Below are positions 10,640-10,844 of a stretch of DNA of 64,000 nt, piece by piece; position 1 is the stretch's first letter; each line of letters begins with the position of its first letter. The position numbers were made by a program, and so were the translations under genes. Location of the stretch: positions 7,502,001-7,566,000 of the forward strand of contig OZ024753.1 of assembly GCA_964016885.1 (NCBI GenBank), read 5' to 3'. The notes under the pieces were generated by a model. It saw only the letters and a list, made by a program, of their open reading frames with translations. It had not been told where the DNA came from and did not search any database. The DNA comes from Eledone cirrhosa. Lineage: Eukaryota.

Positions 10640-10842
10640 AACGAAGGAAATGTGGTAAGGAACCAGGTGGACCATAACGCACCAAAGTACTCAATACTTA
10701 GGGTAGTAGAGTGGGTAATAGGAACGAGTAGGACCCCGACGGCTGAGCTCAAGCCGTTTCGACGGCTAATTCTGGACTAAATTTAGTCCAGAATTAGCCG
10801 TCGAAACGGCTTGAGCTCAGCCGTCGGGGTCCTACTCGTTCC

Positions 10843-10844
<2 letters not shown>
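10640..10844. mobile_element. Family A foldback element in (TA)n (PLE-like; each arm carries the 3' half of a hammerhead)
   Basis: Perfect ~62 bp arms centred on ggactaaa|tttagtcc; arms contain GAA-ACGGCT-tgagctc-AGCCGT-C-GGGG. Further copies at 10517, 14928-15120, 18657-18850, 27507-27721, 28049-28330, 34822-35010, 42985-43090 and 44175-44355; diverged copy at 17225. Confidence 0.8.

Follow-up and report, generated by a model that had tools for sequence, protein, structure and literature searches.

Short foldbacks in Eledone cirrhosa as head-to-head insertions of a Hydra-clade Penelope-like element, probably bounded by an RNA 5' end

Foldback insertions in the window

The window is a 64,000-nt stretch of Eledone cirrhosa DNA (contig OZ024753.1, positions 7,502,001 to 7,566,000), rich in microsatellites, that holds a series of short insertions in which two arms meet head to head. 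The foldback at 10640-10844 lies between (TA)n tracts, and further foldbacks and solo arms of families A, B and C are found along the window. Arm positions are numbered from +1, the A of AGTCC in TTT-AGTCC, which is L051:4349 in the intact parent element described below. The features are as follows.

10515..10575, + strand: solo short arm of the diverged subfamily A2
10577..10639: (TA)n target, left flank of the 10640-10844 foldback
10640-10844: whole family A foldback with junction string ggactaaatttagtcc and (TA)n on both sides
10640..10782, - strand: tail arm of 143 nt, pLTR tip from +139 (distal 3' end site) to -4; matches L051:4345-4487
10779..10784: head-to-head junction AAATTT, both arms reaching -4 with an AT overlap (alternatively both reaching -3, blunt)
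10781..10844, + strand: short arm of 64 nt, pLTR tip from -4 to +60 (proximal 3' end site)
10785, + strand: +1 A, the putative transcription start; mirror copy at 10778, - strand
10795..10831, + strand: hammerhead 3' half only, as predicted from the parent fold (stem II 3' strand, GAAA, stem III with a palindromic loop, stem I 3' strand)
after 10825, + strand: GUC cut site predicted from the parent fold, within that hammerhead 3' half
10845..10866: (TA)n target, right flank of the 10640-10844 foldback
10890-10960: family C solo arm
14927..15120: family A foldback, arm ends +2 and +7; private change GTCGTAAC common to both arms
15218-15353, 30617-30736, 37214-37352 and 44842-44895: family B foldbacks with a compact CTGATGA hammerhead
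17082-17134: family B solo arm
18657..18851: family A foldback, arm ends +4 and +2
27506..27721: family A foldback, arm ends +5 and +1; its tail arm is broken by (TA)n at 27622-27654, exactly at the +60 site
28050..28334: read-through short arm of A2 on the - strand, fused to a truncated tail arm
34822..35011: family A foldback, arm ends +10 and +1
42984..43091: complex family A insertion of a short arm to -3, a tail-copied piece and another short arm beginning near +39
44175..44356: family A foldback, tail arm from about +19 and short arm from +1
63750-63891: family C foldback with a CTGAGGA...GAAAC core, turning just 5' of the core

By the parent fold, the hammerhead 5' core is missing from the 10640-10844 foldback. 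An earlier note on this DNA had described seven family A junctions lying at or near the same bases; all seven strings are present in the window, and the locus at 42984-43091 is not a plain foldback. Across the 3.0-Gb assembly, a pattern of two opposed cores at most 60 nt apart gave 15,676 matches per strand and none in the control, or about 15,700 foldbacks. No read-through parent of family C was found.

Other repeats share the window. Identical inverted arms with a CTGACGA hammerhead core stand 730 nt apart at 52044-52139 and 52872-52967 and appear to be another Penelope-like family. Foldbacks of a further (TA)n family, ending GGGAGGGTCAT/GTTATACTT, occupy 34049-34270 and 49794-50232, the latter with perfect arms of 172 nt. 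Short foldbacks at 17505-17550 and 18500-18555 carry GAAGC in place of the expected GAAAC, possibly a core variant, and the inverted repeat pairs at 24080-24749 and 48477-49023 are presumably SINE-like. A long array of a 9-nt unit (AGTAATAAC type) runs from 1190 to 2690 among trinucleotide tracts. An Rfam scan of the window returned no match at gathering score.

The parent element

From what element do the arms derive? Genome copies were found with sequence patterns, and those extending upstream of the turning point were followed to the locus L051. Its self-alignment shows an intact ORF (4568-6736) between two pLTRs that lie 3,118 nt apart, together with an inverted tail arm and a partial copy; partial tandem pLTRs, an inverted 5'-truncated copy and a tail at one end, the marks of Penelope-like (EN+) elements, are all present. 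The ORF is a single frame in which RT and GIY-YIG endonuclease motifs can be read by eye. As expected of the Hydra clade, it contains RWR, DKT, CNCPDRSIC (CxCx5C), CNLC (CxxC) and CKH (CxH), lacks CCHH and carries its endonuclease at the C-terminus. Compared by eye, it follows the Hydra alignment in the supplement of PMC8557442, and its GIY-YIG core contains one Cys. Insertion into (TA)n, a further Hydra mark, is read from the flanks, and the repeat period of 3,118 nt is slightly over the Hydra body limit of about 3 kb. Neptune was tried as the identity of the ORF and dropped, since the motifs fit Hydra; a Pfam search of the ORF matched no family. On the evidence of sequence, the foldbacks are the 3' tip of the pLTR of a Hydra-clade Penelope-like element whose intact parent is L051. 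Beside this element, an unrelated non-LTR reverse transcriptase (YADD) leaves an open frame of 396 residues on the minus strand of L051, at about 489-1676.

Unconstrained folding of the L051 pLTR predicts a hammerhead three-way junction with a long stem II and a U3-A8 core, a core type described in PMC4209133. In this model, +1 falls in the apical part of stem II, on its 3' strand, bulged or unpaired, and -4 would be the first paired base past the apical loop. The apical hairpin is also predicted in a diverged parent, L104. Rfam returned no relevant match for L051, hammerhead included. A non-LTR retrozyme was considered as well and rejected, as tandem monomers with a whole hammerhead in each would be expected of it; the foldbacks are single and hold only the hammerhead 3' half.

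A sharp edge at the turning point

In an unselected 1.054 Mb around the window, 116 arms contain the +12..+47 core, and 112 of them stop within -4 to +12; the commonest end points are +1 (24), -4 (13), +2 (12) and +7 (11). The ends are clustered and not uniform, so the claim of the earlier note that the arms turn at the same few bases extends to arms chosen without regard to it. The -3/-4 class, to which the 10640-10844 locus belongs, makes up 17 of the 116. At their opposite ends, arms stop at two fixed 3' end sites, +60 and +139. Among 68 tail-anchored arms, tallied by eye, 27 have ends scattered over +16..+98; 41 reach +12, and 38 of these stop within -4..+12, the loss per base in this interval being about 30 times that over +16..+98. 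Read-through arms, of which 16 were measured, continue for 38 to more than 1500 nt upstream, with no second end hotspot among them.

Genome-wide exact counts fall from 36,243 for a pattern beginning at +10 to 15,824 at +1, 7,675 at -3 and 3,711 at -7, longer patterns also missing mutated copies. Many solo arms start exactly at AGT. More than half of the exact-match arms end between +2 and +10, so trimming (or, in part, mutation) is needed to account for them. Could the step at +1 be an assembly fault? Short-read contigs of run X1 show a rise of about 15-30 fold at +1, so this is not the case, although the run may stem from the sample used for the assembly.

An extra G and a TATA box at the edge

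What precedes +1? In the first 100 listed of 220 matches for an arm following (AT)5 plus one base, that base, counted by eye, was G in 63, T in 24, A in 8 and C in 5. Read-through parents carry T or C at -1, and the target is without G. At +5, used as a control, G occurred in only 1 of the first 100 listed of 146 matches (also counted by eye), which excludes an A-to-G change of the repeat as the source of the G. Nor do the G copies stem from one master, since 42 of them, from 40 fetched stretches, comprise 13 arm haplotypes with 42 different flanks; both short arms (27, counted by script) and tailed arms are represented. Some foldbacks carry the G on both arms.

Family B shows the +1 edge as family A does, 18 of 47 diverged copies not being placed in its end histogram. 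Here the base before +1, read by eye in all 87 matches, is G in 55, C (the parent base) in 19, A in 13 and T in none. From pairing read by eye, +1 in this family lies 5' of the whole hammerhead, at the start of stem I. The box TATAAATA stands at -30 in the family B parent and at -29 in two sister subfamilies with different spacers. Family A has a variant TATA, TATTTAAA, at -29 to -31, which has decayed in some subfamilies, and the single A2 parent has no TATA at -30. All starts are pyrimidine-A (U-A or C-A steps), and a TATA near -30 combined with such a start constitutes the sequence marks of a Pol II core promoter.

The sharp edge at +1, the G found only there, the same rule in family B and the TATA box 29-30 nt upstream lead us to read the turning point as an RNA 5' end, probably a capped transcription start; to the explanation as a whole, we assign a probability of roughly 70%. 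For most copies, the same observations count against the proposal of the earlier note that the cDNAs stopped at a structured site. Its placement of the turn inside stem II agrees with the predicted parent fold, but an RNA starting at +1 would hold no stem II. In family A, the RNA 5' end appears simply to fall inside stem II, and the ribozyme is split as a result. The untemplated G is a sign of run-off at an RNA end and not strictly of a cap.

Could reverse transcriptase instead stall in the long stem II of a read-through RNA, or the cDNA switch strands at the apical hairpin? The ends do spread over the paired stretch +1..+12, the model puts +1 in the apical helix and -4 beside its loop, and the hairpin is kept in the diverged parent L104. 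Stalling, however, leaves unexplained why G occurs only at -1; in family B, where the G recurs and a TATA stands at -30, the turn is located 5' of the hammerhead, and arms that pass -7 continue for hundreds of bases. We therefore regard this as unlikely, if the least unlikely of the alternatives. Still less likely is a nuclease cut of the RNA at +1, where the predicted fold has a bulged pyrimidine-A step, with reverse transcriptase adding a C at the uncapped end. Starts that are all U-A or C-A and an unpaired +1 in the parent model would suit such a cut, yet the TATA spacing is fixed across diverged spacers, and the known cut at the hammerhead site, predicted after +41, leaves no trace, 0 of the 68 tail arms starting between +36 and +53.

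A splice acceptor at the AG of +1/+2, with the G as the last base of a spliced leader or of an exon upstream, is very improbable. TTTTCATTTAG and TTTTTTGATACCCAG are acceptor-like, T stands before the G in 13 of 17 arms, and an intron of Drosophila Penelope ends at helix I (PMC4209133). Upstream of the G, however, no common sequence is present in 17 arms, no arm among the loci examined has upstream parent sequence spliced to +3, and family B has sister subfamilies that lack the T tract and keep the TATA spacing.

The -3/-4 class, including the 10640-10844 locus, has the context TCATTT, with a G before ATTT in a few pairs and T runs of 2 to 12. Its solo arms with an extra base are rare compared with pairs, numbering nine genome-wide, with G in 3, A in 5, T in 1 and C, the parent base, in none. 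A second start at -4 is weakly suggested by these sequences, and untemplated A-tailing could also produce the class. For this class, the structural idea stays, because -4 is the first paired base past the predicted apical loop, and an event at that loop may be involved. Another foldback family (G000:C13:7381258, 8018976 and L022), whose parent was not found, starts ACTATCC and has a preceding G in 3 of 5 arms.

Pairs and their junctions

Are the palindromes copied as units or made at each insertion? Junctions are distinct in 36 of 38 unselected pairs, and in 63 of 69 when 31 pattern-selected pairs are added; the four that recur, seen 4, 2, 2 and 2 times, each span two or three subfamilies. It follows that the palindromes were made anew, as the earlier note had supposed from junctions that differed each time, and are not a MITE. 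The few recurrent junctions are what would favor a fixed MITE-like or non-autonomous unit copied whole, a possibility that we consider next to negligible given their spread over subfamilies, the diversity of the remainder, unequal arm ends fixed at +60 and +139, and an autonomous parent that is an RT element. Neither a fixed internal sequence and length nor the equal terminal inverted repeats of a MITE are present, and a fixed TSD is unreadable in (TA)n.

A 139-nt tail arm is combined with a 60-nt arm in 35 of the 38 unselected pairs, and 65 of the 69 pairs, pattern-selected ones included, have one tail. Of the 69 pairs, 60 are callable, and 57 of these have arms from a single subfamily, compared with a mean of 14.8 and a maximum of 28 in shuffles. 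The comparison of arms that the earlier note had suggested gives a divided answer: identity is 0.944 within loci versus 0.853 between them, but only 16 of 38 pairs have the partner as best match (strictly so in 2), so it does not follow that one RNA molecule served each locus. Twelve short arms are joined to a core-less tail arm, and in 7 of these the tail arm starts at +52 or later and, barring later DNA loss, cannot have templated its short arm. These cases and the single tail per pair bear out the idea of two cDNAs. Two separately primed cDNAs are the best fit for the pairs, and asymmetric pairs could be later deletions.

Self-priming, with the second arm primed by a single cDNA folded back on itself, as proposed for rotifer Penelope palindromes, ranks below the nuclease cut in our estimate. 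In its favor are the arms of one subfamily in 57 of 60 pairs, the private change in both arms at one window locus, and the palindromic overlap of 1-2 nt that arms often have at the junction. Against it, the 7 short arms hold sequence missing from their partners, solo short arms, which also stop at +60, have the G (27 of the 42 G copies are short), and some foldbacks have the G on both arms. A later loss of centres from longer inverted insertions, long palindromes being unstable, could yield varied junctions and asymmetric arms, and long inverted pairs are also present in the genome. Solo arms without a palindrome nevertheless show the same +1 edge and G, and a deletion adds no G; this account is quite improbable.

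An exact-match tally of 62 pairs scored 29 with inserts of at least 3 nt, a figure that overcounts in mutated arms, has no random control and is to be taken qualitatively only. At L185 and L187, the opening 4-9 letters of the arm, with the G among them, are duplicated, (AT)n standing between the two copies; the cDNA end may have jumped onto the target and back.

Proposed mechanism

How would such insertions arise? We propose that the foldbacks are short head-to-head Hydra-clade insertions into (TA)n, made from two cDNAs, both of which left the template at the probably capped 5' end of an RNA whose start is the turning point, the explanation favored above. A TATA/initiator promoter within the pLTR would start a capped RNA at +1. 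Because the pLTR tip is then also present at the RNA 5' end, both internal priming sites would stand only 60 and 139 nt behind the cap. The protein would cut both (TA)n strands and prime one cDNA per strand, one at each site, as the in vitro behavior of Poseidon suggests. On reaching the end of the RNA, each cDNA would run off it and in many cases acquire a C opposite the cap, plus a few A's. After trimming by 0-12 nt, the two cDNA 3' ends would be end-joined, either overlapping by 0-2 nt or with a short insert between them, often copied from nearby sequence. Should a cDNA join the target instead, a solo arm would result. Long copies, about 1/10 of arms, would be those primed on the 3' pLTR copy, the 5' priming sites presumably being used far more than the 3' ones. 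Being without the TATA box and the hammerhead 5' half, the foldbacks were probably inactive from the moment of insertion. One speculation, which we did not adopt, is that the 5' priming sites have to be used because the hammerhead cuts the 3' copy; this fits family A and not obviously family B, whose +1 RNA would contain the whole ribozyme.

More generally, we lean modestly towards the view that symmetric twin priming on sense, capped RNA is the routine mode of insertion of Penelope-like elements. Use of the 5' sites would let both cDNAs run off the cap and fuse, and the inverted pLTR would be the second cDNA and not a product of antisense self-priming. If this is true, the tens of thousands of palindromes here are a fossil 5'-end map of element promoters, and the start sites of each family could be read from DNA. 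A large class of short palindromes, which repeat annotation could assign to MITEs, would be explained as well.

Comparison with known systems

The element resembles the Hydra clade of Craig et al. (2021, PMC8557442) in being short, in its C-terminal GIY-YIG domain, in the RWR, DKT, CxCx5C, CxxC and CxH motifs, in (TA)n insertion, and in having a hammerhead, an inverted truncated copy and a one-sided tail. The tail is about 79 nt here and 30-40 nt there, and the hammerhead here is of the U3-A8 type with a 60-nt stem II. Neither mass short foldbacks, as seen here, nor 5' ends fixed at a start site, as proposed here, are described in the portions of PMC8557442 drawn on. Inverted truncated pLTRs and tails are already known (PMC8557442, PMC3846280), as are start sites inside pLTRs, in Penelope (PMC2377424) and Chlamys (PMC8557442).

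Poseidon_Ac (Frangieh et al. 2024, PMC11167929) likewise has two internal RT start sites that define a tail. In vitro, both DNA strands are cut and extended at an AT-rich target, and hammerhead cleavage is not needed. Our one-tail pairs match these two internal starts on both strands. The joining of two cDNAs and run-off at the 5' end, which appear not to be treated in that account, are here deduced from genomic copies.

In L1 twin priming (PMC11702581, PMC9341517), the opposite DNA end likewise serves for a second priming, ends are joined with microhomology and an additional 5' G is found; at complete ends, that G is an accepted sign of cap copying (PMC9341517, PMC11702581). The second priming of L1 is internal and gives an inversion without overlap, whereas here the same 5' stretch would be copied twice to give a palindrome. 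For Penelope-like elements, we found no report of a cap-type G or of arms bounded by a start site in the literature searched, many older papers being outside its scope.

The Adineta Penelope elements (Arkhipova et al. 2013, PMC3846280) have head-to-head inverted pLTRs, with TATA and initiator-like motifs in the pLTR. Their junction palindromes were read as self-priming on an antisense template, with a sense template left open, and how the inverted repeats form, from sense or antisense template, is named as an open question in both PMC3846280 and PMC8557442. In contrast to that reading, our data favor two cDNAs on a sense, probably capped RNA. The element and its gross structure are known, and what is new and testable is the evidence on mechanism. 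Both kinds of arm carry the cap-type G and an edge at TATA spacing; these favor two cDNAs on a sense, capped template and would help to settle how Penelope-like elements make inverted repeats.
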